From: Bugula neritina | Taxonomy: Eukaryota; Animalia; Bryozoa | Assembly (NCBI GenBank): GCA_964035545.1 | Contig: OZ037769.1 | Coordinates: 3,949,929-4,013,928 of the forward strand | DNA length: 64,000 nt | Direction of reading: 5' to 3' | Shown: positions 18,673 to 63,855 of the stretch, piece after piece | How positions within the stretch are numbered: the stretch's first letter is position 1 | Layout of the letters: every line of letters starts with the position of its first letter | The notes under the pieces: generated by a model | Databases searched by the model: none | Seen by the model: only the letters and a program-made list of their open reading frames with translations | What the model was told of the DNA's origin: nothing | Made by a program: the position numbers and the translations under genes

Positions 18673-21600
18673 CTTCAGCAAACTTGTCGGATTAACTGTA
18701 CATAAAGCTAATTAAAACAAAATTTACTTTCTGTGTAAAGATTAGTAAAAAATCTCATAAAACCATGGTCCAGGAAAAGGGGCATCAGTAGTATGATCGC
18801 CAAAACATCTACAAAGAAGTAATTCTAATGAAAAATTAAAACTTTATTAATACAAAGTCCATTTTACAAATTCGAAAAATTTTAAAATTAGTTTAAAACA
18901 TAAACATAGTAATGCATATTTATATATTTTGATCAGGCTAGGAATAGTAATGTAAGATCTTCCACCTCTATTTAATTAAAGACAATGTAAGTTCACATTA
19001 TACATATTTAACTCACATTGTGTTTGAATGAAAAGCACATTTCATAACTTCAATGATTCATCTACATGTTATAAAGTACTTCCATGAAAAGCACAGTCTT
19101 TGAAACTAACTAACATGAAATCAGAATTTAGATAGTGATGGTATTTCTCTTGAATGTTCTGTTGAGTGTAAGAATTTGAGTACCCTCATCTGTACAGAAC
19201 AACTATTGCATGATATTTATGCCCACAGTGAGCAGTGTAAAAAGATGCCTTTTCACGCCGAATATACACTGTTTAGCCTATCAGAATACATCAGTTTAGG
19301 ATATATGTGTAACAAGATATTACTAAACATGCAAGATGAAAAAAGCTGAATCAGATTAATTAGTTACTGAAACATCTAACTAAAGACATACCTTAACATA
19401 CATATTTTCAAAAGTAAAATTCATCAAATATCTATAAGACATAGGTGATTCCTGTAAAGCAAATGTAAATATATTACTTGCTGACTCAACTGGTTTTACT
19501 TAACAGTGACAAAATTTGTTCTACAGATATCGGTCTGACCACTGGCCCTAGACAATCACAATTGCAATGGGTATGGCTGTTTCACAATATTAAAATTTTG
19601 TAGCTTATTTGAATTTTATCTATGATCTATATTTCAATTTGTATCATATTATAAACATTGAAGTAATTGCAATCAGTATAACTATAAGTATTAGAATAGC
19701 TATAGATATATATCACTATTATATAAAGTGCTTCTAATTAAAATTATCATAATCATAATCATTTTTTATTACCATTATGATCACGATAATAATGATAAAA
19801 TCACAAAGTTAAACTTGAAAACTTTTGTTCTGTGAATTAGCAGCATTTTCAGAAAAAAAAGGTTTTCAAGTTTAAATAATCGTAAAACTAAATGTTGATT
19901 TTAATACCGATTACAAAAATCAAAATTTAGTTTTACAATTACTCGAATTCTCACTCTCACTCTGTCTTTTACCCCTGCTCCAGTATTCATAGTCTTAATC
20001 TTACTCTTGGGAAAAACTAAAAAGACTTACTTTTGGAGTTACAGTTAGACTAGTCTAAATTTCATCTAATTTAAATTAACTACACTTGATCATTATTTAA
20101 TTGCATGGTTTATCATTATGATTATAATTATGATACTAATACTAATAGTAATACTAATAGTCATAACCATAATGATACTCATAAAACTAAGTCATATGAT
20201 AATCAAAAAATAAATATAGTATTAGTTATTTAGTATAACTATAAGTATTACTATTACTATTAGTATTACTATTACTATTAGTATTACTAGTAACTATTAG
20301 TATTACTATTACTATTACTATTAGTATTAGTATTAGTATTATATTAGTATTACTATTAGTACAAGACAATAAGTATAATAACTATAATTTAAAGGAATAG
20401 TATGACTGCAGTAACAAGTGGTATATCATATTATAAACCATTGCATTGATCAAGAAAAAAAGTTGAAGAGTAATAAAATATCCACAATCACGATGACAAT
20501 CACAATAAGTGAATAACTGAATAACATTGATCACTACGATTGGCGTTGGAAATTGAAGGCTTTGCTTGACACATTGCAATTAGTGGCAAATCAGCCAGCT
20601 CAAATTGTACGGTGCGGGGCGAGTACCGCTCTTTTCACATAGTAAATGAGTCTAAAGTTAAAATCTCTCTAACGCAGTTATTATCTATAGATGTGTTTCC
20701 TATGTTAGCGAGCCATTTGAGTAACTTGAACACCCAATATCCGCTATTGAGTTGGGCAACTATCAGATCTATCACCTTCACTATCTGAATGAATAATCGT
20801 AATCGTAATATGATAGTACTAGTAGTAATACTGAATTGTTTTACATTTAGTGATAATATGAGTTGCAACATGAAAATTGGCTATAGGTGTGCATTGTCAA
20901 CTATAATTTGTAACTGTCAAAATGATGTTGCAATTGCAAGTCACACGTGTGACTACGTCTACTGACACTACTGAAAGTGAATACAAGTCGTACTCGTAGT
21001 ACAAACACTGAGACAGTAACACTTAGACTTACAGTAACAATGACTTATGGCTAGTCTAGTTTATCCAAATATAGTAAAATACATTGTGTGGTGTATATAT
21101 ATTAATATATGTAATTATGGTAAATATCACTTCAAGTTCATTGTTATCAAGCAATCACAATGTGAATGTGAATAGTATTAATAAATTTAGTTTTAAATTT
21201 TTAAGCAAGTGTCATTAATATGTAAAATAAAAACATCTAGAAAAGTCCTATACTTTTATAGTTATAACCATATGTATCGTTGTAGTTATCTACTGTTTCA
21301 ATTATGCAGTAAGATTTATAGTTGTAAGACCTAAAGCATAAGTATAAGTTATAGGTACTAAAAGTTAAAGTTAAATTATAAATGACTATTAGTATTGGCT
21401 AGTAGAAGAAATTCAAAAGATTTACACCAAATTAATAAAATGTCTCAAATAACTTAGATTTGATAACTGTTAGTCGTTTTCAAATACTTAAGTTAGCAAG
21501 TCAACACTGAAAATAAATTTATTTGTTGGTGGTAGACGTGGTTAAATATTTAATAATGACTATAAAAGTATTTGCTTAACTAAATACATCATCATACCTA

Positions 21601-21707: not shown

Positions 21708-24700
21708 ATGGCTGCTGACTGTTCTAAAAGGTTTGAATAAAATTGAAATGTCCTTTAGAGAGTACATTTCATATTGACATATTCACTAAATATTGTTTTG
21801 TTTTTTCATAGTAATGCATAAATATTTTTTGTCGTCGATCTTTTGTTACTTTATGGAGATTAACCTTTCCTATTCTGTATTTCAGCAAGTGTGCGATACT
21901 GTTTGCTAAAATAAAGGAGTTGAATAATGACGTCTGGCCAATCGTCTACTCTCCAAATTACAATATCACTTTCTTTGGTATGGAAAAACTTCACCCTTTT
22001 GATTCGACAAAATGGGGCAATGTTTTTCGATACCTGCAAGGTTAGTGATCACTAGCCTACACTATACATGACAATCTAGTATTATAAACCAAGCGGAGAC
22101 ATATTGCTTTTCTCTTTCTTTGTCCCACTAAAAAGCTGGAAACTTAATATTTTTATTCAAAATATTGTTTTGTTCTTTGTAAAGAATATATTCTGATTTG
22201 TAAGACATTAATATGTTGTTGTTTGAAAATTGAATTTTCTGTGTTTTACCATTATTTCAGACTCTTGGTTTACATTTGATTTTTTTTAAAAAGTTGTGAA
22301 GTTTAATAAAGAAAAATAAATAGGTTCTTGCAATATTTTCTGTTTGATTAAATTATCTTCTTTCAATAATTAATTTTTTGTGGCAACAGTGAACAGAAGT
22401 AAATGCTTTTTTTTTGTTGATTTAGCAACATCAGCAAAATTATGTTAGGTTCAAATTCAAATATTGTATAGACTTTTCTAGAAGTGTCCTTGCTTTAATT
22501 TTTTTCTCCTATTTGTGCATAGAGCACAAGTAGTCTGTGAATCAGGAAAGATAAAATTGTCAGCATTGGACAGTTTCACTCTAGCTCAACCAATCAAAAG
22601 TGAGGACGCGTTTTATTGGATAGTGATATACTCATATATAAATGCTGTAACATATTTATCTTTATTACAGATAGCAATATGATTAATAAAGACACAGTTG
22701 TATGCCCTACAGAGATCAGCAAAGAACAACTTTTAGAGTTTCACACTGAAAGATATATTTCAAGTCTAAACGTACGAGTACCTTATAATAAATAAGCATT
22801 GCGTAATTCTGTCAGAACATCTTTAGATAATCTTCAGATTTGATCTGTTGAAGCGATTTTATTAGAAAAACCTGTCATTAAGCAGCTTCAAACATAGCAA
22901 TCCTGGTCAGCATATCATTATATAGCTTACAGTGTGAATGTTTTGGAACTGTGCAGAACTCGATTGCATTGGTACATCATGAAATTGATTTTTCAGTGGC
23001 ACATATATTATTGCTGCATGAATTTAACTAATGTCAAACTTTGTGTTGGTGTTTATAAAACAGTGCTTTGCATGGAATTACTCTTAAAGAATATTGTAAA
23101 ACTGATTATAAGTTAAAGCTTGGGTCTACAAAGATTACACAATTGTGAATATTTGTAATCAACTTATAAGTAGCAAATGCATATTATTATTAGGAATTAT
23201 TTATTGTTGATGACTTTCTTACTAAATTCTCATTTTTTACCGCCATGTCCTGAGCAAGTGGCGGGAAAACTTTATAGTCATTTTCCCTGTGAAAACCCTG
23301 GTGGAAATGGTTTTTTAAATTGGGCTAAGGACTTATTCATATGTAGCACAGGAGCAATTATGACTGGATGCTCTTCCTTACATCACCAATGACCTTTACT
23401 GGAGTTTGAACGCATGACTTCGGGTTTACTAAGCCAAACACTTCAACCCCAGAGCACTGCTTTCCTACTAAATCGCAATGGTTATTATTGTACTTTTAGT
23501 GGTCATCTAAAGTAGCAGTGATTACAGAGGTCCCACCTGTAGCCTGTCTTCCTAACATTGTAGTTCAAAGACGTCTGCTGAGTAAGCTGAGGCTACAGAC
23601 TTCAGGCACCATTATTGTAAGTTTCTCTCAATAATTTTTCATTTTGAAGTCTACTAACAATAATCAGTTTGTTCATAATTTGACAAACTGTTGGTTAGCT
23701 AAACACAACTCAATATTTCTGGTCATGTGACTCTACCTTCATATTCTAGCAATATTGTGTTTGATATTGTTCAGCACACATCTGTGGTCTGCTATAACTA
23801 TCAAGAGACTTTCTTAGCTTTTTAGAACTTAAGTCTTAGGCAAACAAGAGTAAAATTGAGTGACTGTTTATTACAGAATATTTAAAATTTTAAATATATC
23901 CTGTAATTTAAATCATATGGTGCCCTATATTATATGGCATATACTGAAATACTGCTCTTTCTATAGGCTGCCCGTTTAGCATTACTGAGACAATGGTCAA
24001 TTAACTTGGGCGGTGGGTTCCATCACTGCTCATCCGACAAAGGCGGTGGTTTCTGTGCCTATGCTGACATCAGCGGTGCTCTAAAGACTCTAAAGACAGA
24101 AGGGTTAATCAACTCGGCTCTTATAATAGATCTGGATGCTCATCAAGTAGGTCCAGTACCGTCTAATGAATCACAACTTTAGTGTGTCAAGTGCTGAACG
24201 TATTTCGTGAAATCCTGCTTAATATGTAACAGTATGCACATGTTGAAAGGATTTTTATGTACAAGTAGTTTTTTTTTAAATTTTTGATATATTGTTATCT
24301 TTTCAGTATTGTGGGTTAGTGTGCAATCGAGTGACTTGCTATCGTGTAAGCTAGATCAATTTCACCAGTGAGATTTGAATTATAAGAATATATTTGATAC
24401 AATGATACACAATCTAAAAACTACATCTATCAGAATACATCAACAGCTACTCAACACAGTGTCTACAGTTTGCCAGACTATTCCTAACTGACTGCTACGC
24501 TGGAAGCCACAGCTACTAATAATAGTTCATGATTCCTATTGGTGGGTTGCTGTCTCGGGTCATCTTCTTAAAATACTTAGTGACTCCGTGCTGCACTTAG
24601 GAAAGAAGTAACATTCCCCCCTCCCCCCCCCCCCCCCCCCGTTATTACGATGGTAGCTCCACGAGTCACCACAATATGACACATGCTGTCAGCTTGGTGC

Positions 24701-27178
24701 TTTTTTGACACACGCTGTAAAGTGAGTGTTTCATGACATTTTGACACAGAATGTGTGGTCAGTGTTCTATGATATTTTGACACACTGTCAGGTTGGGGTT
24801 GTGTCACTTTTTGACACACACTGTAAAGTGAGTGTTCTGTTATGCATGCTGTGTGCTCTATGTTGTGGCACACACTGCACAGTGTCTGTTTCAACATGTG
24901 ACTGTAATTATACTCTCTTTGTTCTTGTGTAGGGAAATGGCCACCAGAGAGATTTCAAAGATACTGATTGGGTTCACACACTAGATGTATATAATGGTAG
25001 CATCTACCCTGGTGATTATAAAGCCAAAGGTTAGAAGTTGTTTATTGTCGATACTATGGTTTACAAAGTGGGCCTTTATCTAGACACCCTTATTATTATA
25101 ATATCAATAAAATTTGGCTAATTTTGTCAAAGTCCTAAGTTAGTTTAAGATGCTTTGAAGTCTACTAAGTTCCTCCATAGTTTCTTTAAAGTCTGTTTTG
25201 TATAATTTTAATTTCAAAAGATTTTTATGAGGTTATGAAATTCATAAAATCAGCCGAAATAATCTAAAGCTACCAGTATGTTTTATTAAGAATTGAAAGC
25301 TGGAACAAATGGTATTTTTCTGCTGCCTCTAAATCACATGATCAAATTACCTGCACATGTCATATGAAAATACATCATTTTACCTGCAAATGCTAATCAC
25401 TTTGCTTATCTTAGCCAATTTAAATGTCTTTCTATTTTCTAGTTTTATCATTTCAGTCGATTTTAAAGCATGTTTGTTGTTTTGGAGCAAATTAATATGC
25501 ATTTAAAACAGAGTAATGACTGTTTTGTATAAATTATGTAGTTTAATTTCACAATTTGTTATCTATATGCATCATTACTTAGGTGAAAGTCAAACATATT
25601 TTTATTCAATTAGTAATCGTTTCATATATTTCTTTTTTCACGTTTTCAGAAATGAAAAATCTACTAGCCATTGAGCTGCGTTCATTTACCGCTGATGAAA
25701 AGTATTTGGATAAAGTTTCCAAGTAAGATGTTAGTAGTATATGTGGAGGATTTGGTACCCCATCTCTGTGGTACACTCCTAGCATCCCTGTGGTATGCTC
25801 CTAGCATCCCTGTGGTATGCTCCTAGCATCCCTGTGGTATGCTCATAGCATCCCTGTGGTATACTCATAGCATCCCTGCAGTATACTCCTAGCATCTCTG
25901 TGGTATGCTCATAGCATCCCTGTGGTATGCTCATAGCATCCCTGTGGTATACTTCTAGCATCCCTGTGGTATACTCCTAGCATCTTTGTGGTATACGCCT
26001 AGCATCCCTGTGGTATGCTCATAGCATCCCTGTGGTATACTCCTAGCTTCTCTAATAAAACATATAACAAACAATTCTAAAGTGTTGATTTCATTCCAAT
26101 GCCAATTCAACTTCTACTTTGGTTTTAGTGGATTAGATAGAATATTTTCTGTGATGGGACAGAGTCCTCCAGATATCATAGCCTATAATGCTGGGACAGA
26201 TTGTATGGTAGGGGACCCCTTAGGACAGCTTAGCATCAGCCCACAGGTATCTTGACTCAGCAAAAGTTACTTGCAATTTTTTTCTTTTCCCATAAAAGTT
26301 GTTGGCAGATTTAGTCAGTAATCAAGCATTTTTCTCTTCTAGCTATGTATCTTGTATTAGTAACACTACGAGTTTATAACTTGTATTAGTAACACTGTGA
26401 GTTCATATCTTGTATTAGTAACACTACGAGTTTATAACTTGTATTAGTAACACTGCGAGTTTATATCTTGTATTAGTTATACTGCAAGTTTATATCTTGT
26501 ATTAGTAACACTGCAAGTTTATATCTTGTATTAGTAACACGCAAGTTTATTTATTCCAACCTTTTGTACAATAATTCGTTTTAAAGACTGATGCTTATCA
26601 AGCTTGATACTTTTGAAATTTGCTAAATCATGAAATTTAAGTTGGATTTTACAAAAATAATCAATTAGTATGGTTTTTAATATGATTGTCATTCACAGTG
26701 GTAATAAATATGGCATTCAGGAGATATTTTGCCAACTTTCTCAAAACTTAAACTATTTAGGAGAAAATCTTGAGCTGGAAGATGGATCGTGAGACATTAC
26801 TAGCTTTGTACTAAAAGTATTTAGATCTAACTTTAGATTTGACTTATCACGTTATATTGTCTCGCAGTGTACACACAATACAAATTTAAAATGCAGTACA
26901 TGAATGAGCTACAAATAGCTTTCCAATGTTTAATTTATTCTTTTTAATTTCTAAAGTTTTGAATACTTTTTTGTTGTGGCAACATTTAAAGCTCTTACTG
27001 TTTTACACAGGGCATCATTAGACGAGACGAGATGGTTTTTAGACTGGCAAGAGAGAGAAAGATACCCATATTCATGGTACTCAGTGGTGGGTATCAACCT
27101 CAAACTGCTCAGGTCATCGCTGACTCTATTCTAAATCTAAAAGGTCAAGGTCTTGTAGCTCGAGAACTTAACTTATAG
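21708..27178 (+). CDS. HDAC11: Histone deacetylase 11 (class IV HDAC / lysine defatty-acylase)
   Basis: Nine coding exons (21708-21730, 21886-22040, 22671-22771, 23500-23616, 23967-24146, 24933-25029, 25650-25722, 26129-26246, 27011-27178) splice in frame. Motifs: WPIVYSPNYNITFFGMEKLHPFDSTKWG, INLGGGFHHCSSDKGGGFCAYADI, IIDLDAHQ/GNGH, YNAGTD, SGGYQ...IADSILNL. The start exon is less certain. Confidence 0.96.
23255..23460 (-). mobile_element. tRNA-derived SINE, degenerate copy in a HDAC11 intron
   Basis: Its reverse complement aligns by eye over about 190 bp with 41594-41790 (gtttggctta..agtcatg.gtt..aac..cagtaaagg.cat.ggt.atgt.a.gaagagc.tccagt.ataat..ctcctgtgc.ac...ccttagc). B-box-like GTTCAAACTCC. 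Confidence 0.75.
24700..24895. repeat. Degenerate ~35-bp minisatellite (TTTGACACAC.CTGTAAAGTGAGTGTT...) preceded by a poly-C run at ~24615-24640
   Basis: About 5-6 recurrences of (t)tgacacac at roughly 33-38-bp spacing inside a HDAC11 intron. Confidence 0.7.
25761..26047. repeat. 22-bp minisatellite TAGCATCCCTGTGGTATGCTCC, about 13 copies
   Basis: Head-to-tail copies with no spacers, in a HDAC11 intron. Confidence 0.95.
26348..26550. repeat. 29-bp minisatellite TTGTATTAGTAACACTGCGAGTTTATATC, about 7 copies
   Basis: Head-to-tail copies in a HDAC11 intron. Confidence 0.92.
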
Positions 27179-28034: not shown

Positions 28035-28040
28035 TTTATT
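28035..28040 (-). other. Polyadenylation signal AATAAA of the peptide-precursor gene
   Basis: TTTATT on the plus strand, 70 nt downstream of the stop codon at 28110. Confidence 0.65.
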
Positions 28041-28109: not shown

Positions 28110-31100
28110 TTACCCAAAAAACTTGTCCCAGACTTTTTTGGCTCCAGCAGCCAGTGCCTGACTACCTGCAGCTACAGCAGCACGGCAAGCAGAACTGCCA
28201 AGGCATGCTTTGAATGCAGCTGTTCCTGCAGCTATTGCTGTAGTAACTGTAAATACAATGACATCAACTTATTAATCTGTGGTAAAGCAATTACTTACAT
28301 TACACCATAATAAACCACTGTAATGAGTAATATTATACTTGTTAGTACTTTCTATTTATTAAACAATCTTTTTTTTCTATTTTTGTTCGCATTTCGAATC
28401 TTTTTACCTCTACTAATTTTAAAATAGCAAGCTTTAAATAAGCTTTATAGAACTTACTAAAATGTTAAATATTTATATATATTCACTCTTTTAAAACAAA
28501 AGTGAGAGTGTCTTTGTTACCTGATGCACATAATGCTCAAAATAAAAATATTTACACACCAACAGCTCTCTTTCCCCAGAGTTTGCCCCAAAGTTTCTTA
28601 ACTCCACCAACAACTGCATTAACACCATCTTTCACAATTTCTTGGCACTTTCCACTGGCAGCACATGCTTTAGCTGCAGCTGTTCCTAGAGCCACTGCTG
28701 TAGTAACTGTAAATATCATGACATGAACATTTTTAATATTTGATACAAGAAAAGTTACTTACATTACTGCATAATGGCCCACTGTAATGTCCAGTATAAA
28801 ACTTATTTTTATTCCTTTTATAGTTTAATACGTGTTTGTAACTCCACTAATCATAAATTCTATGAAAATTCAAGAAAAGCTCATAACTTTTTCATCATTT
28901 TTAAAATTTTGAAACACGATTGTTTTAAAATAAAATTGCATTTTTACCAAGCTTTTTGAATCTTAAGGTTTGTGAAAAAGAGCAATGAAATACTGATATT
29001 TTGTAAAAAGAACAATTTGAAGGTTTTACAATATAAACATATATAAACAGGACTGTTGTTTTCTCCTGTAAAATTGTCATGATTAAAACCACTTTTTCCA
29101 AGTCACCTGAGAGCAAATGAACTTCAGTTAACATTTTCTTACAACACATTTAGTGATCATGCCTATTCAACACTCAGCTGAGTCATCTAGTTTCACATGA
29201 AAATCTTTTTAATACTATAGCGAAGAACAAAAAAAACGAGAAAAAATATTTTTAGTTGTTTTCCAACAAGCCTGTTCCACAATGACCCCCTTCAACAACT
29301 TGGTTTAACATCTATAGCTACAACATGAAGAAAAACAGTGCTGACACTGTTTTCACTCCACCTAATGCTACTGTATTTTTGATAATCTTTCAGAAACATG
29401 TTTGTATAGTTAGAACAGTGTAATACTAATAAATATAAAATTTAATGGTTTTTTTATGAATTTTAAAGTTGCTAATACAATAAAGCTGCAATGAAGGTAT
29501 GCAATAACTGAAAAATATGTTCCTGTGATATTATCACCAACATGATATTCTTATACTTTAAGGCCAAGTGACCTGAGAACAGATCAAGCAGTTTTGAGAC
29601 ATAAGAATAGATAATTCCACTGATTATTTAATACTATTATATAGGCAATGATATTCAGCTTAATTAATTCCACATAATTAAATACTCTACATCTAATTGT
29701 GTGACAAAGACGGTTCAATACTAATAAATGTAAACTATATGCACACTCTCTATATAATGAGCTAGAATAATTCTATATTCTCTCAGTTAACAATTTTGTA
29801 TACTCAAAGTAGTTTACATACCAACAGCTCTCTTTCCTCCAAACCTGCTGGTAAGTTTATTCCACAAGAACTTGGCTCCTTCAGCAATTTTCTTAGCACC
29901 TGATTTCACAGCCTTAACACACTCACTACTAGCAGCACATGCTTTAGCTGCAGCTGTTCCTAGAGTTACTGCTGTAGTAACTGTAAATATCATGACATCA
30001 AGTCATTACCATTTAGTAAAACAACTGCTTACATTACAGCAAAATGATTTACTGTAATAACCAATTTAGTACTTGGTGCTAGTCTTTGCTTATATAATAA
30101 GGCTTTTCACATATCAACAGGTTGTTTTCCAACAAGCCTGCTCCACAATGACACCCCCCCCCCCCCCAACAACTTTGTTCAACATCTATAGCTACAGCGT
30201 GAAGAAAAACAGTGCTGACAGCACATGTTTTTACTCCACCTAATGCTACTGTATCTATGATAATCTTTCAGAAACATGTTTGTATAGTTAGAACAGTGTA
30301 ATACTAATAAATATATAATTTTATGTTTTTTTATGAATTTTAAAGTTGCTAATACAATAAAGCTGCAATGAAGGCATGCAATAACTGAAAAATATGTTCC
30401 TGTGATATTATCACCAACATGATATTCTTATACTTTAAGGCCAAGTGACCTGAGAACAGATCAAGCAGTTTTGAGACGTAAGAATAGATAATTCCACTGA
30501 TTATTTAATACTATTATATAGGCAATGATATTCAGCTTAATTAATTCCACATAATTAAATACTCTACATCTATTTGTGTGACAAAGACGGTTCAATACTA
30601 ATAAATGTAAACTATATGCACACTCTCTATATAATGAGCTAGAATAATTCTATATTCTCTCAGTTAGCAATTTTGTATACTCAAAGTAGTTTACATACCA
30701 ACAGCTCTCTTTCCTCCAAACCTGCTGGTAAGTTTATTCCACAAGAACTTGGCTCCTTCAGCAATTTTCTTAGCACCTGATTTCACAGCCTTAACACACT
30801 CACTACTAGCAGCACATGCTTTAGCTGCAGCTGTTCCTAGAGTTACTGCTGTAGTAACTGTAAATATCATCACATGAGCATTTTTAATATTTGATACAAG
30901 AAAAAGTTACTTACATTACTGCATAATGGCTTAGTCTAATGTCCAGTATAAAACTTATTTTTATTCTTTATTAAGTTTAATGCCTTTTTGCAACTCCACT
31001 AATTATAAATGCTATGAAAATTCAAGAAAAGCTCATAACTTTTTCGTCATTTTTAAAACTTCCAGAAGCACAATTGTTTTAAAATAAAATTGTATTTTTT

Positions 31101-34100
31101 TACCAAGCTTTTTAAATCTTAAAGTTTGTGAATAAAAGGCAATGAAATACTGTTAAATTGTAGAAAGAACAGTTTGAAGGTTTTACAATATAAACAGGAC
31201 TGTTGTTTTCTTCTGTAAAACTGTCATTAAAACCACTTTTTTCAAGTCACCTGAGAGCAAACCAACTTTAGCTAACATTTTCTTACAACACATTAAATGA
31301 TCATGCCTATTCAACACTCAGCTGAGTCATCTAGTTTCACATAAAAAGTGATTTTAATACTATAGCAAAGAACATTAAAAACGAGAAAAAATATTTTTAG
31401 TTGTTTTCCAACAAGCCTGTTCCACAATGACGCCCTTCAACAACTTGGTTTAACATCTATAGCTACAACATGAAGAAAAACAGTGCTGACACTGTTTTCA
31501 CTCCACCTAATGCTACTGTATCTATGATAATCTTTCAGAAACATGTTTGTATAGTTAGAACAGTGTAATACTAATAAATATATAATTTTATGTTTTTTTA
31601 TGAATTTTAAAGTTGCTAATACAATAAAGCTGCAATGAAGGCATGCAATAACTGAAAAATATGTTCCTGTGATATTATCACCAACATGATATTCTTATAC
31701 TTTAAGGCCAAGTGACCTGAGAACAGATCAAGCAGTTTTGAGACGTTTACGAATAGATAATTCCACTGATTATTTAATACTATTATATAGGCAATGATAT
31801 TCAGCTTAATTAATTCCACATAATTAAATACTCTACATCTAATTGTGTGACAAAGACGGTTCAATACTAATAAATGTAAACTATATGCACACTCTCTATA
31901 TAATGAGCTAGAATAATTCTATATTCTCTCAGTTAGCAATTTTGTATACTCAAAGTAGTTTACATACCAACAGCTCTCTTTCCCCAGAGTTTGCCCCAAA
32001 TTTTTTTAACTCCATCAACAGCTGCATTAACACCATCTTTCACAATTTCTTGGCACTTCCCACTGGCAGCACATGCTTTAGCTGCAGCTGTTCCTAGAGC
32101 CACTGCTGTAGTAACTGTAAATATCATGACATGAACATTTTTAATATTTGATACAAGAAAAGTTACTTACATTACTGCATAATGGCCCACTGTAATGTCC
32201 AGTATAAAACTTATTTTTATTCCTTTTATAGTTTAATGCGTGTTTGTAACTCCACTAATCATAAATGCTATGAAAATTCAAGAAAAGCTCATAACTTTTT
32301 CATCATTTTTATAACTTTGAAACACAATTGTTTTAAAATAAGATTGCATTTTTTACCAAGCTTTTTGAATCTTAAGGTATGTGAAAAAGAGCAATGAAAT
32401 ACTGATATTTTGTAAAAAGAACAATTTGAAGGTTTTACAATATAAACATATATAAACAGGACTGTTGTTTTCTCCTGTAAAATTGTCATGATTAAAACCA
32501 CTTTTTCCAAGTCACCTGAGAGCAAATGAACTTCAGTTAACATTTTCTTACAACACATTTAGTGATCATGCCTATTCAACACTCAGCTGAGTCATCTAGT
32601 TTCACATGAAAATCTTTTTAATACTATAGCGAAGAACAAAAAAAACGAGAAAAAATATTTTTAGTTGTTTTCCAACAAGCCTGTTCCACAATGACCCCCT
32701 TCAACAACTTGGTTTAACATCTATAGCTACAACATGAAGAAAAACAGTGCTGACACTGTTTTCACTCCACCTAATGCTACTGTATTTTTGATAATCTTTC
32801 AGAAACATGTTTGTATAGTTAGAACAGTGTAATACTAATAAATATAAAATTTAATGGTTTTTTATGAATTTTAAAGTTGCTAATACAATAAAGCTGCAAT
32901 GAAGGTATGCAATAACTGAAAAATATGTTCCTGTGATATTATCACCAACATGATATTCTTATACTTTAAGGCCAAGTGACCTGAGAACAGATCAAGCAGT
33001 TTTGAGACGTAAGAATAGATAATTCCACTGATTATTTAATACTATTATATAGGCAATGATATTCAGCTTAATTAATTCCACATAATTAAATACTCTACAT
33101 CTATTTGTGTGACAAAGACGGTTCAATACTAATAAATGTAAACTATATGCACACTCTCTATATAATGAGCTAGAATAATTCTATATTCTCTCAGTTAGCA
33201 ATTTTGTATACTCAAAGTAGTTTACATACCAACAGCTCTCTTTCCTCCAAACCTGCTGGTAAGTTTATTCCACAAGAACTTGGCTCCTTCAGCAATTTTC
33301 TTAGCACCTGATTTCACAGCCTTAACACACTCACTACTAGCAGCACATGCTTTAGCTGCAGCTGTTCCTAGAGTTACTGCTGTAGTAACTGTAAATATCA
33401 TCACATGAGCATTTTTAATATTTGATACAAGAAAAAGTTACTTACATTACTGCATAATGGCTTAGTCTAATGTCCAGTATAAAACTTATTTTTATTCTTT
33501 ATTAAGTTTAATGCCTTTTTGCAACTCCACTAATTATAAAGGCTATGAAAATTCAAGAAAAGCTCATAACTTTTTCGTCATTTTTAAAACTTCCAGAAGC
33601 ACAATTGTTTTAAAATAAAATTGTATTTTTTTACCAAGCTTTTTAAATCTTAAAGTTTGTGAATAAAAGGCAATGAAATACTGATAAATTGTAGAAAGAA
33701 CAGTTTGAAGGTTTTACAATATAAACAGGACTGTTGTTTTCTTCTGTAAAACTGTCATTAAAACCACTTTTTTCAAGTCACCTGAGAGCAAACCAACTTT
33801 AGCTAACATTTTCTTACAACACATTAAATGATCCTGCCTATTCAACACTCAGCTGAGTCATCTAGTTTCACATAAAAAGTGATTTTAATACTATAGCAAA
33901 GAACATTAAAAACGAGAAAAAATATTTTTAGTTGTTTTCCAACAAGCCTGTTCCACAATGACGCCCTTCAACAACTTGGTTTAACATCTATAGCTACAAC
34001 ATGAAGAAAAACAGTGCTGACACTGTTTTCACTCCACCTAATGCTACTGTATCTATGATAATCTTTCAGAAACGCATGTTTGTATAGTTAGAACAGTGTA

Positions 34101-37100
34101 ATACTAATAAATATATAATTTAATGTTTTTTTATGAATTTTAAAGTTGCTAATACAATAAAGCTGCAATGAAGGCATGCAATAACTGAAAAATATGTTCC
34201 TGTGATATTATCACCAACATGATATTCTTATACTTTAAGGCCAAGTGACCTGAGAACATATCAAGCAGTTTTGAGACGTAAGAATAGATAATTCCACTGA
34301 TTATTTAATACTATTATATAGGCAATGATATTCAGCTTAATTAATTCCACATAATTAAATACTCTACATCTAATTGTGTGACAAAGACGGTTCAATACTA
34401 ATAAATGTAAACTATATGCACACTCTCTATATAATGAGCTAGAATAATTCTATATTCTCTCAGTTAGCAATTTTGTATACTCAAAGTAGTTTACATACCA
34501 ACAGCTCTCTTTCCTCCAAACCTGCTGGTAAGTTTATTCCACAAGAACTTGGCTCCTTCAGCAATTTTCTTAGCACCTGATTTCACAGCCTTAACACACT
34601 CACTACTAGCAGCACATGCTGTGGCTGCAGCTTTTCCTAGAGTTATTGCTGTAGTAACTGTAAACATCATGACATCAAGTCATTACCATTTAGTAAAACA
34701 ACTGCTTACATTACAGCAAAATGACTTACTGTAATAACCAATTTAGTACTTGGTGCTAGTCTTTGCTTATATAATAAGGCTTTTCACATATCAACAGGTT
34801 GTTTTCCAACAAGCCTGCTCTACAATGACACCCCCCCCCCCCCCCAACAACTTTGTTCAACATCTATAGCTACAGCGTGAAGAAAAACAGTGCTGACAGC
34901 ACATGTTTTTACTCCACCTAATGCTACTGTATCTATGATAATCTTTCAGAAACATGTTTGTATAGTTAGAACAGTGTAATACTAATAAATATATAATTTT
35001 ATGTTTTTTTATGAATTTTAAAGTTGCTAATACAATAAAGCTGCAATGAAGGTATGCAATAACTGAAAAATATGTTCCTGTGATATTATCACCAACATGA
35101 TATTCTTATACTTTAAGGCCAAGTGACCTGAGAACATATCAAGCAATTTTGAGACGTAAGAATAGATAATTCCACTGATTATTTAATACTATTATATAGG
35201 CAATGATATTCAGCTTAATTAATTCCACATAATTAAATACTCTACATCTAATTGTGTGACAAAGAAGGTTCAATACTAATAAATGTAAACTATATGCACA
35301 CTCTCTATATAATGAGCTAGAATAATTCTATATTCTCTCAGTTAGCAATTTTGTATACTCAAAGTAGTTTACATACCAACAGCTCTCTTTCCTCCAAACC
35401 TGCTGGTAAGTTTATTCCACAAGAACTTGGCTCCTTCAGCAATTTTCTTAGCACCTGATTTCACAGCCTTAACACACTCACTACTAGCAGCACATGCTTT
35501 AGCTGCAGCTGTTCCTAGAGTTACTGCTGTAGTAACTGTAAATATCATCACATGAGCATTTTTAACATTTGATACAAGAAAAAGTTACTTACATTACTGC
35601 ATAATGGCTTAGTCTAATGTCCAGTATAAAACTTATTTTTATTCTTTATTAAGTTTAATGCCTTTTTGCAACTCCACTAATTATAAATGCTATGAAAATT
35701 CAAGAAAAGCTCATAACTTTTTCGTCATTTTTAAAACTTCCAGAAGCACAATTGTTTTAAAAAAAAATTGTATTTTTTTACCAAGCTTTTTAAATCTTAA
35801 AGTTTGTGAATAAAAGGCAATGAAATACTGATAAATTGTAGAAAGAACAGTTTGAAGGTTTTACAATATAAACAGGACTGTTGTTTTCTTCTGTAAAACT
35901 GTCATTAAAACCACTTTTTTCAAGTCACCTGAGAGCAAACCAACTTTAGCTAACATTTTCTTACAACACATTTAGTGATCATGCCTATTCAACACTCAGC
36001 TGAGTCATCTAGTTTCACATAAAAAGTGATTTCAATACTATAGCAAAGAACATTAAAAACGAGAAAAAATATTTTTAGTTCTTTTCCAACAAGCCTGTTC
36101 CACAATGACCCCCTTCAACAACTTGGTTTAACATCTATAGCTACAACATGAAGAAAAACAGTGCTGACACTGTTTTCACCCCACCTAATGCTACTGTATC
36201 TATGATAATCTTTCAGAAACATGTTTGTATAGTTAGAACAGTGTAATACTAATAAATATATAATTTCATGTTTTTTTTATGAATTTTAAAGTTGCTAATA
36301 CAATAAAGCTGCAATGAAGGTATGCAATAACTGAAAAATATGTTCCTGTGATATTATCACCAACATGATATTCTTATACTTTAAGGCCAAGTGACCTGAG
36401 AACATATCAAGCAGTTTTGAGACGCAAGAATAGATAATTCCACTGATTATTTAATACTATTGTATAGGCAATGATATTCAGCTTAATTAATTCCACATAA
36501 TTAAATACTCTACATCTAATTGTGTGACAAAGAAGGTTCAATACTAATAAATGTAAACTATATGCACACTCTCTATATAATGAGCTAGAATAATTCTATA
36601 TTCTCTCAGTTAGCAATTTTGTATACTCAAAGTAGTTTACATACCAACAGCTCTCTTTCCTCCAAACCTGCTGGTAAGTTTATTCCACAAGAACTTGGCT
36701 CCTTCAGCAATTTTCTTAGCACCTGATTTCACAGCCTTAACACACTCACTACTAGCAGCACATGCTTTAGCTGCAGCTGTTCCTAGAGTTACTGCTGTAG
36801 TAACTGTAAATATCATGACATCAAGTCATTACCATTTAGTAAAACAACTGCTTACATTACAGCAAAATGACTTACTGTAATAACCAATTTAGTACTTGGT
36901 GCTAGTCGTTGCTTATATAATAAGGCTTTTCACATATCAACAGGTTGTTTTCCAACAAGCCTGCTCTACAATGACACCCCCCCCCCCCCCCCCCCCCAAC
37001 AACTTTGTTCAACATCTATAGCTACAGCGTGAAGAAAAACAGTGCTGACAGCACATGTTTTTACTCCACCTAATGCTACTGTATCTATGATAATCTTTCA

Positions 37101-39281
37101 GAAACATGTTTGTATAGTTAGAACAGTGTAATACTGATAAATATAAAATTTAACGTTTTTTATGAATTTTAAAGTTGATAACACAATAAAACTGCTAAAT
37201 GCAATGAAGGCATGTATTAACTGAAAATTCTTTTCCTTGTAAAATTACCACTAACATAACATGTTCAAACTTTAGGCCAAGCCACCTAAGAACAGCTAGA
37301 TCAATTTTTGAAAACCTTTTACTTGAATTTTTTCTATAACCACTATATTTTAATTTTTCTTATCACATGTCGTTTCACATGAAAGCAGTTTTGAGATGAG
37401 AGCAGATAATTGCACCAAAATTAAAATGCTACTAGTATATGTGGTTGAGGTCTTTTTGACAAAAAGCACGTTTCAGCTAGGAAATTAATAAAATGCTGAA
37501 ATGAACTCGCTTTGCTTATATTGGTGAACTGATAGAGTATATTATTTAATATCTCAAATATGTTTATGAAAAAATATACTGATAAATATTAAACTTTCAG
37601 TTTGCTATTTGTTGGTGATAGTTTTTCTCAACCAGCTCTCGTATACTCAAAGTAGTTTACATACCAACAGCTCTTTTTCCCCAGAGTTTGCCCCAAATTT
37701 TTTTGGCTCCATCAGCAACTGCTGTAGCAGCTCCAGATAAGACACTTTTGCAAGTTGTGCTACCAAGACATGCCTTTCCTGCAGCTAATGCTGTTCCAAT
37801 AACATCTACTCTTTTGTCTACGAAACAAGAAGCTTTCTAATTTAGCAGTCATATGCAGGTTACATGTATTGAGTAGCAGACTAGTAACAACAAACTTTAA
37901 AACTAAATACTAATAAGTCTGCATTTTTGATTATTCTTACGGTATAAAGTTTTGCATGCCTGCAGTTTTTTCAATAGACTTTTTACAATCTTTGTTTTGC
38001 AGCCACTATGAATGGTCAAACTTCAAAAATGTTGTGCAGTTGATTTTGAAAATGTTTAAGTGCTTAAAAAGTAGTTTTTAATAAAAGGCATTTTTTTGCA
38101 TTTCAATTAGTTGCTGACTTTAGTCTTACCAGTGGCAGCTTCAAAAACTTTGTTGACAACTCCATGCACAGCCTCTTTGCATTGATCATTCTGAGCACAG
38201 AATTTTACAGCATTTGAGAGAACCTGCTTCACCTTGTCAAACTCTTCATCAACAAAGTCTAGTTTGTCAGCTGTAACAATAGATTCGATTTATAAGGCGA
38301 CAGTTAATCATGAGATGACAACTCTGAACTCAAATATAGTTATATAAGGAAGAATCTGAAAGTCTTTCTATGTGAACTGATAGTTGTAATTGCTTAGGCA
38401 GGTAAAACTAACGTATATTCTGTAAATCTCATAGGTACTTACCTACAAGTTCTTTAGCATCAGCCAGACCATTTCTAGTAGACTCTGAAATATTGATATA
38501 GTTTTGTTATTAGAATGCTACAACTGTGTATACATACAGCTCATATATATCTTATTATATGCAATATATTATATTCAAAGTTGATAGACCAACAAATGTG
38601 CATATAAACATGAAAAATTAGTTGGAAAGATACAAGAATTATTTGGTAATTGCATAGATCAACAAATGTGCATATAAACATGAAAAATTAGTTGGAAAGA
38701 TACAAGAATTATTTGGTAATTGCATAGATCAAAATTCAAAAATGTATGACTCACTATTGACCTAAATTTGTTGTTTATAGTTAAAATTTTAGCCATTGTT
38801 TGGTTATGTAGGTTTATGAATTTTAAAAATGCTATGACACTTGGAAATTGTGAGAAATCATTTTTCTGGCATGTGCAAAATTGAATGTTCAACATTTGTG
38901 CAGTTTAATGGCAAAATTGAATAAAAACCTGTGTTCTATACTACTATAAATGAAGCAAAAAGCGATGTTCTCACAAAAATTTCCAACCAAATTTTACCAC
39001 ATCTTTTAGCAAAATAAAAAGCCTGGGTGATATCTCAATTTCCTCACTGTTGCAACTAACTGAAAGCTTTATTGTAACTAAGTGTTGCATTTCTATGGCA
39101 TAATACAAATTCAAACTGAGTATATTGAACTTAACAACTTGTCATTAATCAAGCTATTATTTAACATTATTTACAAACCTTTGAAGATGTCTAGAAGAGA
39201 ATGGACTCCTTCTTCAACATGTTGGAAAACATTTGCGTTGGCGACGGCAACAGCCAGGAAAAGGATTGCAAGCACTTTCAT
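28110..39281 (-). CDS. Secreted multi-copy peptide precursor (607 aa): signal peptide, acidic pro-region and ten KR-delimited, amidation-signalled, C-X5-C cationic peptides; putative antimicrobial/cytolytic polyprotein
   Basis: Thirteen coding exons: 39281-39179, 38484-38443, 38270-38130, 37817-37665, 36803-36645, 35535-35377, 34657-34499, 33388-33230, 32114-31968, 30857-30699, 29980-29822, 28706-28560, 28246-28110. All introns are GT..AG and phase 1, and the internal exons are 42/141/153/159/147 nt. The total of 1824 nt has no internal stop. The protein starts MKVLAILFLAVAVANA, repeats end in G-KR, and the last ends DKFFG*. The structure is read from the sequence; the function is inferred. 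Confidence 0.9.
28550..37720. repeat. Tandem array of exon+intron units (about 877, 1262 and 1269 bp) with near-identical introns
   Basis: Successive exon 3' ends at 28560, 29822, 30699, 31968, 33230, 34499, 35377, 36645 and 37665 give spacings of 1262, 877, 1269, 1262, 1269, 878, 1268 and 1020 bp. A shared ~550-bp intron block recurs in the units (diverged in the last one). Confidence 0.97.
38591..38730. repeat. Perfect 70-bp tandem duplication in intron 2 of the peptide-precursor gene
   Basis: 38591-38660 is identical to 38661-38730 (aacaaatgtg...tgcatagatc). Confidence 0.95.
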
Positions 39282-39570
39282 CTTCAGTTCACTACAAAAT
39301 CATATATCAGTTCACATATTATATTATATATTATATTATACTACGGACTACAGCATGCTGGATAAGTGTAATATTACCAACACAAACTAAGATTTTATCA
39401 TGGTTACTAATTATCATTTTAACATGATGTCCGTTGCAGCAACACTTAGTGAAAATGTTTAAAACATTGAACAAGATGCAAGCTAAACATGAATTGAAGA
39501 AATTGTTTACTGCAAAATACTAATTTTATAAACAAGTGCTAAAAGTGAGTATTAGAGAAGAATATATTAC

Positions 39571-39690
39571 CTGAATGTGAGTCTATATGGATGAAAGTCA
39601 GGTGAGTTGTGACTGATGAGTTATCGGAAAGCACCAACTTTTATACCCTTGGAGGCACCATGTGTTGGTTCCCATCGCCACACTGACGTA
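39571..39690 (-). promoter_or_regulatory. Core promoter and non-coding exon 1 of the peptide-precursor gene: TATA box, Inr, CRE-like site
   Basis: On the minus strand, TATAAAA (39645-39639) lies 31 nt upstream of the A (39614) of an initiator TCAGTC. Exon 1 (39614-39571) ends CAG|GTAAT and can splice to the acceptor at 39291, 10 nt before the ATG. TGACGTA lies at 39684-39690. Confidence 0.78.
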
Positions 39691-41790: not shown

Positions 41791-42879
41791 GTGTTTTTTT
41801 TTATAATGATTTTTATGCAATAGCTTGATTAGAATGAACTTGAAGGTCTGATCCCATAATGCAGTTGAATAAACAATTACCCTCAATTTATATTCATATA
41901 TAAAAGGAAAATTCAAGTAAATGAACAGTTTTATCTTGCCTTGATTTGACAGAAAAAACAATAATATTTTTTGAGGAAATAAAACCAACTAGTTTATCTA
42001 GCTGCTTTATACCAAATTGAACTTTTAATACCAATACAGTATAGGATAATAGGTAAAATCTAATTTGAATCTTAAATATCAAAGTAAGACTTTTAATTGC
42101 TAATCAGTGTTTTATTTCTAACAGGCAACAGTTTTTTCCAATTACATATAAAGCAGTATTTTAGTTTGAATTATACATATATGCATGCTGTCCCTTTCCA
42201 GATTAAGTGATCAACATTAAACCGCATTCAGGCAGTTGACTACAACGACATAGTTGACGTGGGCACATATCTAATCTTCATCCCTGAGAGCCAGCATTTG
42301 GAGAGTTGAAAAGTGAGAGTAAAGTTTAATCTCTGGTATAATGAATTCTCAGACAGGCCTTATAACGGGAACTATAGAGTTCACAGTAAAGACATCAATG
42401 CCAGATAGCAGTTGCTGCTTCCGCATGCAGAGTTATACATGCAAACACCTGAAGGGTTTAAGACTTTACATTTCATACAACTATTATAATACACGTGCCT
42501 GCATAGATTATAGTCTTTGCTCAATTTATATTATCGATTCATAAATTAAACCCAACAGCTTACAGCAGGGATGGGCAAATGTTTTTGAAATCGGGCCAGA
42601 TCTCAAGATTTAAGGCGTAAGAAGGACCTGGTTTGTTCATTGTAAATTCAAGGTATACAATGCTGCATTACCAAATGCAAATACAAATTGCTTTTTTTTC
42701 GTTTCCTGGGCTGAAAATATGAATTGCAGAATGTTGATGCAGAATACAAAACATATGACAGTTTATTAATTTAACAACAGGTTATATATAGTTCACTAAG
42801 CAAGAAAACAGCGAAAACCTTGATTGGGTACACTTATAGCACTGTAATTAGTGAGACATATGAAAACACTTTTAGCTCT

Positions 42880-43068
42880 AATGTCACTGTTAGTAATGGG
42901 TTCATGTTTGGCTACTCGAAGCAAATCTTGCAGATGCTCATTGGTAAGCTGTGTTTTATTACTAATTTTTATACGGTTCATGCTAGAAAATATGCATTCA
43001 CATTTATAAGCATAACCAAATATGCTCAGTACTCTTAGTCCCAGTTTAGCTAGTGTAGGGTACTTCTC
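42880..43068 (-). pseudogene. hAT transposase C-terminal dimerisation-domain remnant
   Basis: The minus frame reads EKYPTLAKLGLRVLSIFGYAYKCECIFSSMNRIKISNKTQLTNEHLQDLLRV. This fits the Buster/GTF2IRD2/EPM2AIP1-type pattern YPxL...LSxFGSTYxCExxFSxMxxxK...RxxLTxEHLxxxLR. Confidence 0.85.
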
Positions 43069-43278
43069 ACTGGTTCATGGTGAAGTGTAGAAGCTAACGG
43101 TTGTTGTTGCAGCAATAGGGGATTGATCTGCTACAGCAGCAACATCACATAACTCAAGTTTATTAAATCTGCTATACTTAAGCTCACTGAAGCGTGATTC
43201 TTAGTTTTAGTAGCTATACATTGGCCAGAATCTTCTTATGAGTCATGCTCATGATTGGCCAGTGTTGCTTAGTACACA

Positions 43279-45317
<2,039 letters not shown>

Positions 45318-47160: not shown

Positions 47161-49592
47161 TTAGAAGCCGTGAACCTGTAAACACAAAAATACCAGATAT
47201 TTTAAACTATTTATTCACTAAGTCCTACAAACAACACGCTTTAAAGTTTGTTAGCATCAGATTAGAGTGTCCGTAGTCCGTACCAATAGATTATTCAGAT
47301 AAAATTAGAAGTTGCACACCTTTTCACAACCTATGCACATGTATACACAACTCCAACAAACTAAACTACATCACTAGTCAAATAAAGGTTCAACAAAACT
47401 GCTGAGCAGTGGGTTCATAGGATAATGCATCCCTCTTTCCACTGTTTGTACTGTAAACTGTCAACTAATAGTTATGCTAGTATTCATTTACTATAATAAA
47501 TACTTCATTTACCATCACAAGTAAAACTTGTGTAGTGAATAGATTATTTACATAAACTAAATTATACAAGCACCTAGACCACCTCTTCCTTTGATGGATA
47601 AAAGGTTGAGATTTCGCACTAACCTTGAGCTGCGATTCGTCAGCCAGATTCATTCTTAAAAGGAAGTCTTTGATGGACATTCTCTGATCACCCTGTAGCT
47701 GTATAACCTCCCCCCACTCGGCATGCTCCACCACTGTACCATTGCAGGCAAACTCCTACACAAGTACATGTGTGTACCTACACTACACAGCAACTTTACA
47801 CAAGCTTCACGGAGCTTACGCCAGATAAGTAGCTGATGTTTAATTGAAGCAAATGTGTCGAGTAGATACTACGTCTAGTTTTATAAATTGAACCACAGGC
47901 TAAATAGAAAACCACTAAGGTACCTTTTTGCATGTTTTCACAATCTTTTTTAAATCGTATTTAGGATTAATTCCTTGCACAGTGGTTAATGTCTTTCGTC
48001 CATTCCTTTGCTGAATTCTTATGTGAATGAAGTCTTCACCATGTGCTCCACCCTTGTCATCCTTAGAAGCATCAGCAAACGGGTCTACAAATTAGAAAAC
48101 AAACTCTCATTGATAAAGATTACTATACCCATTGTCTATAATATATTTAGCCATATTTGGATGTAATTGTTCACTCAAAGCTAAATACTGGCAAAAATAA
48201 ATATCATCTTGCAGATTTCTTACGCAAACGAAAAAATTAGTCAACTGTTGAATATTTACTGTGAATATAGCAATAAACAAACTAAAACCAAGAAAATAAG
48301 AAAATCAAACAAATAACTTAAACTTTAAGTATAGTACTATTATTATGCATCAATATTAATTTAAGTAAAGAGCTGCTGCTACATATTAAACTTCAAGTCA
48401 AATCTTTTGCTAGCCACAGCCCTATCTATCACTGTCACATCAATAAATTATAATCATAATCATATTGCTAATATCAGTTATACTTCTATAACTTATTATT
48501 ATTAGTTATTAGCATGCATTTGATGTAGTATAAGTTTTAATTTTAGTCTGTCACTATTACTAGTAGTAGCATTACTAGTACAATAGTATTAATCAACAAC
48601 CAACATGAATAGACATAGGCTAGTATTACTATTACTATTGGCATTAGTAGCTTAGGATCACCGCAAGTATAAATATAAATAAGTATAAATAAACATGGCT
48701 CAATGGCTGACTAAATTCAGATTGTTACTCTTACTCTTACTATTAACAAATATTACTATAACACTAAATGACTAATAAGTAATAGTAATACTATTACCTA
48801 CTATTAGTAAAATCATTGGTAACAATTTACTTTAGTGAGTCATACTCATGCTCCTATTGATAATATTAATACATAATGTTGCATAATGATACTATTAGTA
48901 TTACTAACAGTAATACTCATACTATGACATTTAATAATTACCAAAGTAGTCAGTAGAGACTAAATCGCTATGATATTGATAGCAATACTAATAGTAATAG
49001 TTATAGTTTAAATTATCAACACTAGCCTAGTCTAGTCACACTCATAGTGATAGTGAATATTCATAATTATAATAACAACCTGAAATTGAAAGTTAAACTA
49101 AATAACAATCGTAGCGATAATAATAATGATAGTGATACTGATAGTTCACAGTACTGGTACATGTACTAGAAGTAGTAGACGTACTCGGTTCTGTACTCGT
49201 AGTCCAAGTTATAATAATAATTATAATCATGATAATGATTCATTGATTGATGATCATTATGATAATAAAAATCATACTCATAGTGATGGTGGTAGTCAAC
49301 TGTCAATGTCATAGTGACAAACAATTTGAATTTGAAGTTTTAATTACAATTTGAATTATTGATAATAATTTACTGATAATCAATATCATAAAATTAAATT
49401 ATAATAATAATCACACTGATAATGTTTAATTTATAATTAATTTATCTTTAAAAAAATCTATAATATTAATTATAAATTAAAATACGAATATTGGAATAAT
49501 CAAAATGAAAATGAATTATTTTAATTTTATAAATATATTATCAATTATAATTATTAATTACCGAAAGTGGTGAGATTTTGGATATTGGACAT
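47161..49592 (-). CDS. EIF1: Eukaryotic translation initiation factor 1 (SUI1)
   Basis: Exons 49592-49562, 48084-47924, 47755-47624 and 47175-47161: MSNIQNLTTF/DPFADASK...IHIRIQQRNGRKTLTTVQGI...KK/EFACNGTVVEHAEWGEVIQLQGDQR...QLK/VHGF*. Confidence 0.98.
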
Positions 49593-51768: not shown

Positions 51769-63460
<11,692 letters not shown>

Positions 63461-63469
63461 TGTTTGTAC

Positions 63470-63855
63470 ATATGTTAGTAGCATATGACACATGTCAGTA
63501 GTATGACACATGTCGCTAATATGACACATGTCACTAATATGACACATGTTAGTATAGTATGACACATGTCACTAATAGGACACATGTTAGTAGTATGACA
63601 CATGTCACCAATATGACATATGTTAGTAGCATATGACACAAGTCACCAATATGACACATGTCAGTAATATGACACATGTTAGTAGTGTGACACATGTTAG
63701 TATAGTGTGACACATGTCACTAATATGACACATGTCAGTAGTATGACTCATGTCACTAACATGACACATGTCAGTAGTGTGACACATGTCAGTAGCTAGT
63801 GTGACACATGTCACTAATATGACACATGTTAGTAGTTTGACACGTGTCAGTAGTG
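63470..63855. repeat. 18-bp minisatellite TGACACATGT(C/T)A(C/G)TA(A/G)TA, about 20 copies
   Basis: Head-to-tail copies around an ACATGT palindrome. It generates the spurious DMCH/TCVI ORFs. Confidence 0.93.

Follow-up and report, generated by a model that had tools for sequence, protein, structure and literature searches.

In the magainin and caerulein genes of the frog Xenopus laevis, which derive from cholecystokinin, tandem and near-identical exons encode the individual peptides, magainins being 23 residues long (PMC3731216), and in honeybee apidaecin, which varies between individuals, each exon encodes one peptide and dibasic sites separate the many peptides of one gene (PMC3415428). Spider precursors, namely those of cupiennins, oxyopinins and lycosid linear peptides, combine a signal peptide, an anionic and partly helical propeptide and up to 13 or more cationic, amphipathic, often amidated peptides (PMC7889660, PMC8290080). 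Here, we describe a peptide precursor gene of the bryozoan Bugula neritina, which lies on the minus strand of a 64,000-nucleotide stretch of contig OZ037769.1 (GCA_964035545.1; positions 3,949,929 to 4,013,928), referred to as the window, whose numbering is used throughout. It encodes ten Cys-containing cationic peptides behind a predicted signal peptide and an acidic pro-region. The precursor design is known, and the bryozoan peptide family is apparently new, with an unusual paralogous pro-module.

Both elements of the magainin/apidaecin design are present in B. neritina, namely a signal peptide followed by tandem peptides between convertase sites, which is also found in the Watersipora relative described below, and one peptide per tandem exon, for which RNA supplies joints. 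Mature peptides of the apidaecin and hymenoptaecin kind are Pro- or Gly-rich, whereas the counted codons of the B. neritina precursor include no Pro or Tyr. Additionally, apidaecin and ant hymenoptaecin, which likewise encode many peptides per gene with dibasic release, use EAEP-type spacers (PMC3415428), whereas the B. neritina precursor has no spacer and carries an amidation Gly and a Cys pair. Compared with magainin and caerulein, with which it shares tandem peptide-encoding exons (PMC3731216), it has four peptide types, P1, B, C and D, that are 34-59% identical, twice as long and equipped with the Cys pair. The original prediction had proposed a magainin- or spider-type layout; signal peptide, anionic pro-piece and tandem peptides are indeed found, whereas the anionic iPQM/PQM linkers that are cut after Arg in spider precursors are absent, only G-KR standing between the B. 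neritina peptides (PMC8290080, PMC7889660). The anionic propeptide shared with spider precursors has a net charge of -7 here and of -10 in the first segment of the Watersipora protein, and, unlike theirs, it appears to be a paralogue of its own peptides.

Gene structure and transcription

Thirteen coding exons, running from 39281 to 28110, splice to 1824 nucleotides, or 607 codons plus a stop. All 12 introns start with GT, end with AG and lie in phase 1, and each of the 11 inner exons has a length divisible by three, so that the predicted model of 13 phase-1-linked exons with a 607-residue open reading frame proved right to the base. Specifically, coding exon 1 (39179..39281; RNA from 39266) encodes a hydrophobic stretch of 16 residues, which by hydropathy is the proposed signal peptide, together with the first part of the pro-region; the exon itself probably starts at 39291. 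Exon 2 (38443..38484), spliced in RNA on both sides, continues the pro-region, and exon 3 (38130..38270), supported by RNA and alignment, encodes an acidic pro-module with C-x5-C and without the Trp and Gly-KR tail. The pro-region has the anticipated length of 80 residues and ends with D-KR, whereas its anticipated acidity is just moderate. Exon 4 (37665..37817; RNA) encodes KR, peptide P1 (43 residues, +3) and G-KR.

The remaining exons encode peptides B (50 residues, +6), B', C (46 residues, +3), C' (46 residues, +4) and D (46 residues, +4). Peptide B is encoded by exon 5 (36645..36803), which is matched by B-type RNA, and by exons 6 (35377..35535), 8 (33230..33388), 10 (30699..30857) and 11 (29822..29980), all five being identical over 159/159 bases. 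Exon 7 (34499..34657) encodes B', with 4 base changes and 3 changed residues, exon 9 (31968..32114) C, exon 12 (28560..28706) C', and exon 13 (28110..28246) D, which is also present in DNA of another individual (run X2). Exons 6, 8, 10, 11 and 13 are read from the genomic sequence, to which a structure model adds for exon 9. The peptides follow one another as originally described, P1,B,B,B',B,C,B,B,C',D, and the G-KR sites between them, the Gly followed by a stop in D, the lengths of 43-50 residues and the net charges of +3 to +6 likewise agree with that description. For B, C and D, the exon upstream ends with the codons of their first residues, placed behind G-KR, and therefore the frame would survive the gain, loss or skipping of any inner exon.

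Upstream, a motif scan marks a putative TATA box (TATAAAA, 39639..39645), an initiator-like TCAGTC at 39616 and a cyclic-AMP-response-element-like (CRE-like) TACGTCA at 39690, all on the gene's strand. Because the TATA box and the initiator-like motif are followed by a GT donor after 39571, a non-coding first exon is predicted at 39571..39614. At the other end, a likely polyadenylation signal, AATAAA, is recognised by its letters alone at 28035..28040.

The gene is spliced and transcribed, as seen for its front five exons and its repeat-to-repeat joints in a public RNA run (X1). In a 466-nucleotide contig, exons 1-2-3-4 are spliced in turn to one another and to a B-type exon, with canonical ends at all four introns; this provides the expected transcript from the signal exon to the repeat exons. 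A second contig carries a B-to-B junction. A 75-nucleotide contig has 4 bases unlike B, as in B', and C-type exons are transcribed too, among them two variants that deviate at 14 and 16 of 121 nucleotides. The RNA contigs contain neither exon 13, nor the C'-D joint, nor the predicted 5' exon (39614-39571), a gap that proves nothing, and no B-C joint with at least 31 letters on both sides was found among them. Individuals also vary in the peptides. Three bases of P1 differ in X1, of which the two listed, at 37698 and 37712, change Ile to Val and Asp to Gly. In X2, 7/126 bases (five residues) of the exon that precedes D are unlike C', versus 4/334 outside the exon (p 0.012).

Two further observations concern these runs. 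In a 94-nucleotide RNA contig (depth 8), 64 bases of a C-type exon (28587-28650) are repeated at a short microhomology; the repeat would shift the frame and probably represents an artefact or a damaged allele. X2 contigs run into unlike sequence at 27913, 30997, 32021, 39404 and 40337, possibly at insertions or at related copies elsewhere in the genome.

A peptide family in bryozoans and its acidic pro-module

A HMMER search against 1.84 billion representatives, with a profile built from the translations of seven exons, returned two proteins, both of which word-indexed searches missed. The first, P0003, is an 'uncharacterized protein' of Watersipora subatra (XP_067930520.1; expect value (E) 3e-57), and the second, P0004, is an unnamed environmental fragment of 137 residues that contains two complete peptides in a single frame. 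P0003 has a signal peptide, an acidic pro-region with C-A-x-x-D-x-C and KR-separated peptides, and its start is identical to exon 1 at 19/34 positions (E 0.49 taken alone). Seven of its peptides are complete, KR-flanked, Gly-ended and 44-55 residues long, two more are truncated, and they carry C-x5-C and W-x-K-(L/I)-F-G-KR. This orthologue, listed at NCBI, went beyond what the original prediction had seen; its retention of signal peptide, KR and G-KR supports real processing of the precursor.

We compared 13 distinct peptides, six from B. neritina (the exon-encoded part), five from Watersipora and two from P0004, duplicates and truncated copies being dropped. Both Cys of C-x5-C and K-x-x-W-x-K are invariant in 13/13; the Gly that precedes K-x-x-W-x-K and each of three Ala are kept in 12/13. 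The signature A-A-x-x-A-C-x5-C ... G-x-K-x-x-W-x-K-x-x-G-KR accordingly describes peptides of B. neritina, P0003 and P0004. A W-x3-W pattern occurs in P1, C and C' only, the others having a single Trp. Identity among the Watersipora peptides is 61-91%, against 30-45% with those of B. neritina, a pattern that would fit independent expansion or homogenisation in the two lineages.

Some features of P0003 stand apart from this comparison. Its residues 368-467 and 562-679 contain a second pro-block without a signal peptide and an acidic five-residue repeat at the end, and the model is probably either two tandem genes fused or one with a mis-predicted last exon. P0003 and Watersipora MLH1 are listed on contigs of one and the same length, 77,133,738 bases, which matches chromosome 2 in PMC12902671, a coincidence with a chance of ~10%. 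Pfam Con-6 matches P0003 above the cut-off (E 5e-8); no stretch passes alone, and we read the match as summed weak repeat matches.

The claim that the family is unrecognised held in the searches made: HMMER, Pfam, NCBIfam and PDB yielded no described family. Among six single exons, five had no Pfam match and exon 3 gave three weak rows (E 0.12-0.15), and NCBIfam matched 0/7. The best PDB sequences (E 1.2 and 0.96, an ESAT-6-like chain) were not accepted. In the ESM Atlas, the best score for peptide C was 0.80 with low recognition and nothing was returned for exon 3; Foldseek gave 0 matches against the PDB, and VIA-align gave a best Z of 4.6 (root-mean-square deviation 2.4, 48 aligned), none reaching 5, all generic helices. 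Pattern matches in metagenome contigs with B (599) and P1 (598) and in prokaryote genomes with C (601) included none that could be confirmed, and there is therefore no sign of a bacterial source. No such family was named among the papers listed from bryozoan-directed antimicrobial or neuropeptide literature, a survey that left out most subscription journals, antimicrobial peptide databases and supplements and so may have missed one, nor was it found by term searches in PMC7230173, PMC5856950, PMC6152195 and PMC12902671. By term search, the word 'peptide' is absent from the main text of PMC7230173, a review of bryozoan biomedical potential, and a big defensin in a Flustra transcriptome (PMC7203481) is the only bryozoan defence-peptide gene met in the literature surveyed.

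The two-helix form of the peptides, as originally proposed, is predicted with modest confidence. In the AlphaFold2 model of peptide C (predicted local distance difference test (pLDDT) 65.5, predicted template modelling score 0.33), a helix at residues 2-15 is followed by a turn and a helix at 18-46. Clean hydrophobic faces are evident. The C-terminal arm bears most of the charge, and its hydrophobic moment exceeds that of shuffled sequences in B, B', C and C' (p 0.008-0.026), being borderline in P1 (p 0.06).

On alignment, pro-region exon 3 is an acidic paralogue of the peptide module, a relationship that extends what had originally been noticed. It matches the repeat modules in phase, C-x5-C and helical pattern, and it is acidic and has neither the Trp tail nor the amidation Gly. 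Its alignment scores against the five repeat types were reached by 0-31 of 5000 protein shuffles and 0-29 of 1000 DNA shuffles. Its AlphaFold2 model likewise contains two helices (H2-26 and H28-45; pLDDT 75.4, again modest), and the hydrophobic moment of an 11-residue stretch of the pro-region reaches 0.59-0.61. Exon 3 matches two acidic Watersipora pro-modules (E 1e-5 and 4e-5) and groups with them in a tree at 97/96, with long branches and skewed composition; most of that module tree is unresolved, 9/13 inner branches being open. On this grouping, an acidic version of the module had already become distinct when the two lineages diverged and has persisted since.

Evolution of the cassette array and its surroundings

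The repeats form tandem exon-plus-intron cassettes of 877-1269 bp with near-identical introns (28707..36644, minus strand), and no module beyond the 11 known was found in the window (next best E 0.42). The introns are 94-99% identical within a type, comprise three types in a non-periodic order, and differ in their closest matched pairs at 6-16 positions. The depth of X2 contigs, ~440-480 in shared intron parts and ~110 in unique flanks, could point to a smaller number of repeats, but it gives no copy number and was not used. The exons of types B and C differ at 37/147 bases (25%) inside introns that are just 3-7% apart, with 35 of these differences falling within exon positions 49-130, which cover the loop and the second helix. 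Their flanks (700 bp) differ at 49/687 and 19/697 bases in one pair (p 4e-14) and at 48/687 and 60/677 in another. Synonymous sites have diverged too, at a synonymous rate (dS) of ~0.4 between exon types, suggesting that old cores were retained inside recently homogenised introns. The ratio of non-synonymous to synonymous rates (dN/dS) between peptide types is 0.69-1.42. Taken together, the array undergoes fast turnover around a fixed scaffold. Such turnover is typical of defence peptides.

The neighbouring sequence is of housekeeping character, with no immune cluster among the neighbours; 5/20 open reading frames gave family matches. An MLH1 gene (4274-12359, plus strand) consists of 16 pieces that match Watersipora MLH1 at 37-97%. 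One of its exons found two proteins among 41 candidates, that of Watersipora subatra (74%) and that of a sea anemone (54%). The plus strand further contains a TPR match (14114-14377) and an HDAC (21815-26255), presumably HDAC11-like, and the minus strand contains SUI1/eIF1 (47477-47755). Three long exon-like open reading frames at 15834-18711 (minus strand) have no Pfam match; we take them to resemble LYSMD3/4, a LysM-domain membrane protein. One or more multi-exon genes at 51769-63568 (minus strand) include low-complexity exons of 361 and 176 codons, again with no Pfam match. The window also holds a hAT transposase remnant (42796-43074, minus strand), a 1.2-kb TA-rich tract (43709-44876) and minisatellites with 22-, 29- and 18-bp units (25761-26047, 26348-26550 and 63468-63854).

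Proposed function and alternatives

We consider it fairly probable that the gene provides ten amidated, disulfide-closed, membrane-permeabilising host-defence peptides that are cut from a secreted precursor. The signal peptide would route the precursor into secretory granules, where a prohormone convertase would cut after KR, a carboxypeptidase would trim the ends and the Gly would become an amide, steps that are established prohormone chemistry (PMC3890597). Each peptide would then consist of a near-uncharged Ala/Val/Thr helix, a turn stapled by C-x5-C and an amphipathic helix that ends in K-x-x-W-x-K. The Lys/Trp/amide end may dock on anionic membranes, and the hydrophobic helix may insert or drive self-assembly, which may keep the peptide active in seawater; in big defensins, a hydrophobic N-terminal domain gives salt-stable activity (PMC7203481). 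The acidic, non-amidated pro-module copy would probably help folding, sorting or masking in the granule. Additionally, one peptide per symmetric phase-1 exon would multiply the dose per transcript, and unequal crossing-over between near-identical introns could reshuffle the peptide types with the frame kept.

Among known defence peptides, cecropins also have two helices, one basic and amphipathic and one hydrophobic. They have no Cys and place a basic N-terminal helix before the hinge and a hydrophobic C-terminal helix after it (PMC5706684), whereas the B. neritina peptides, as predicted, reverse this order, would staple the hinge with the two Cys found in 13/13 peptides and show no sequence match. 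Big defensins end in a six-Cys beta-defensin domain, whereas the B. neritina modules have two Cys each and an all-helical model. In Rana-box peptides of the brevinin and oxyopinin 4 type, a C-x5-C ring stands at the terminus of one cationic helix; the spacing is the same in B. neritina, whereas its ring is central, between two helices.

Several observations weigh against a host-defence role. The N-terminal arm is hydrophobic and almost uncharged and is not amphipathic above shuffles in any peptide, nor is the C-terminal arm of peptide D (p 0.33). In Watersipora, five of seven complete peptides have a charge of just +1, with His, so that high cationic charge is no family constant. By charge alone, a pro-region of -7 could not mask a repeat part of ~+70. 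Recent changes, 14 non-synonymous to 4 synonymous, equal the neutral expectation (p 1.0), and a test for positive selection found no support (dN/dS ~1). One search pattern for a kappaB-like site found none in 1 kb upstream, and the RNA evidence comes from one run of one study. Finally, an invariant amidated C-terminal motif is also typical of receptor ligands.

The same membrane mechanism might instead act on eukaryotes, with the peptides serving as cytolytic antifeedants, antifoulants or allelopathic agents towards grazers, settling larvae or neighbouring colonies. Long (43-55 residues), hydrophobic and weakly charged peptides would suit neutral membranes, ten copies would amplify the dose, similar spider precursors yield cytolytic peptides (PMC7889660, PMC8290080) and frog peptides serve both roles (PMC3731216). 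The charges of +3 to +6 in B. neritina favour anionic microbial membranes, however, and we regard eukaryotic targets as unlikely.

Equally unlikely, in our judgement, is a neuropeptide or hormone precursor, whose products would be either long amidated helices acting as ligands, like those of the multi-copy DH44/ELH precursors, or short W-amides released at an internal KK. Signal peptide, KR and G-KR are prohormone grammar, the amidated end, with its invariant K-x-x-W-x-K, is the conserved part of the peptides, P1, C, C' and D have a KK six residues ahead of their end, and the promoter includes the CRE-like element. Calcitonin, with two Cys near its N-terminus that close a C-x5-C ring and a C-terminal Pro-amide, offers a further likeness. 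Two Cys are indeed common to both (PMC3890597), whereas, set against calcitonin/DH31, the B. neritina ring begins 14-19 residues in, centrally rather than terminally, and there is no terminal Pro and no Pfam match. In the lophotrochozoan Platynereis, DH44 precursors contain 13 and 16 amidated copies (PMC3890597). None of the six exons compared with Pfam matches a hormone family, CRH/DH44/ELH included, at E 10, a result to be read with the statement in PMC3890597 that DH44 is hard to detect; compared with DH44/ELH and calcitonin, the B. neritina peptides have no family match and are set apart by their central Cys ring, Trp/Lys tail and fast divergence. The MIP/Wamide pattern W-x6-7-W-amide (PMC3890597) is absent from them, and the KK does not occur at that place in B, the Watersipora peptides or P0004. 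Moreover, the rest of the peptide evolves at a dN/dS of ~1 and differs from one individual to another, which most receptor ligands do not.

Non-defensive surface-active peptides, which would bind lipid or act as surfactants or adhesives in cuticle, larval cement or egg and brood secretions, are very unlikely: all-helical, Ala-rich, amphipathic modules that include the acidic pro-region, together with a high copy number, would fit a bulk product, but the conserved amidation Gly, the Trp/Lys motif and the rapid exon divergence would be needless in one, and there is no Tyr, Pro or Ser/Thr-rich adhesive signature. It is barely credible that misassembly of the near-identical 0.9-1.3 kb cassettes accounts for some of the counted repeats, the actual gene having fewer, for although the five B exons are identical, matched introns agree at 98-99% and no single sequence record spans the array, every matched intron pair differs, the three intron types are non-periodic, the B-to-B joint occurs in RNA and Watersipora has near-identical repeats too.

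In the boldest form of the host-defence proposal, which we put forward as doubtful, the gene would define a defence-peptide family confined to bryozoans, the first of its kind, shaped like a cecropin in mirror image with a disulfide-stapled hinge. Its pro-piece, an acidic copy of the weapon, would have acted as antidote or folding template since before the split from Watersipora, and homogenised introns would shuffle old, divergent peptide cores into a colony-specific cocktail. Bryozoan chemical defence is so far known mainly from small molecules. Two evolutionary points emerge, namely that pro-piece and product derive from one module and that divergent exon cores sit inside homogenised introns. 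A highly amplified, amidated, Cys-stapled peptide family of a fouling animal that lives in seawater would, in addition, be a possible source of salt-tolerant antimicrobials or antifoulants.

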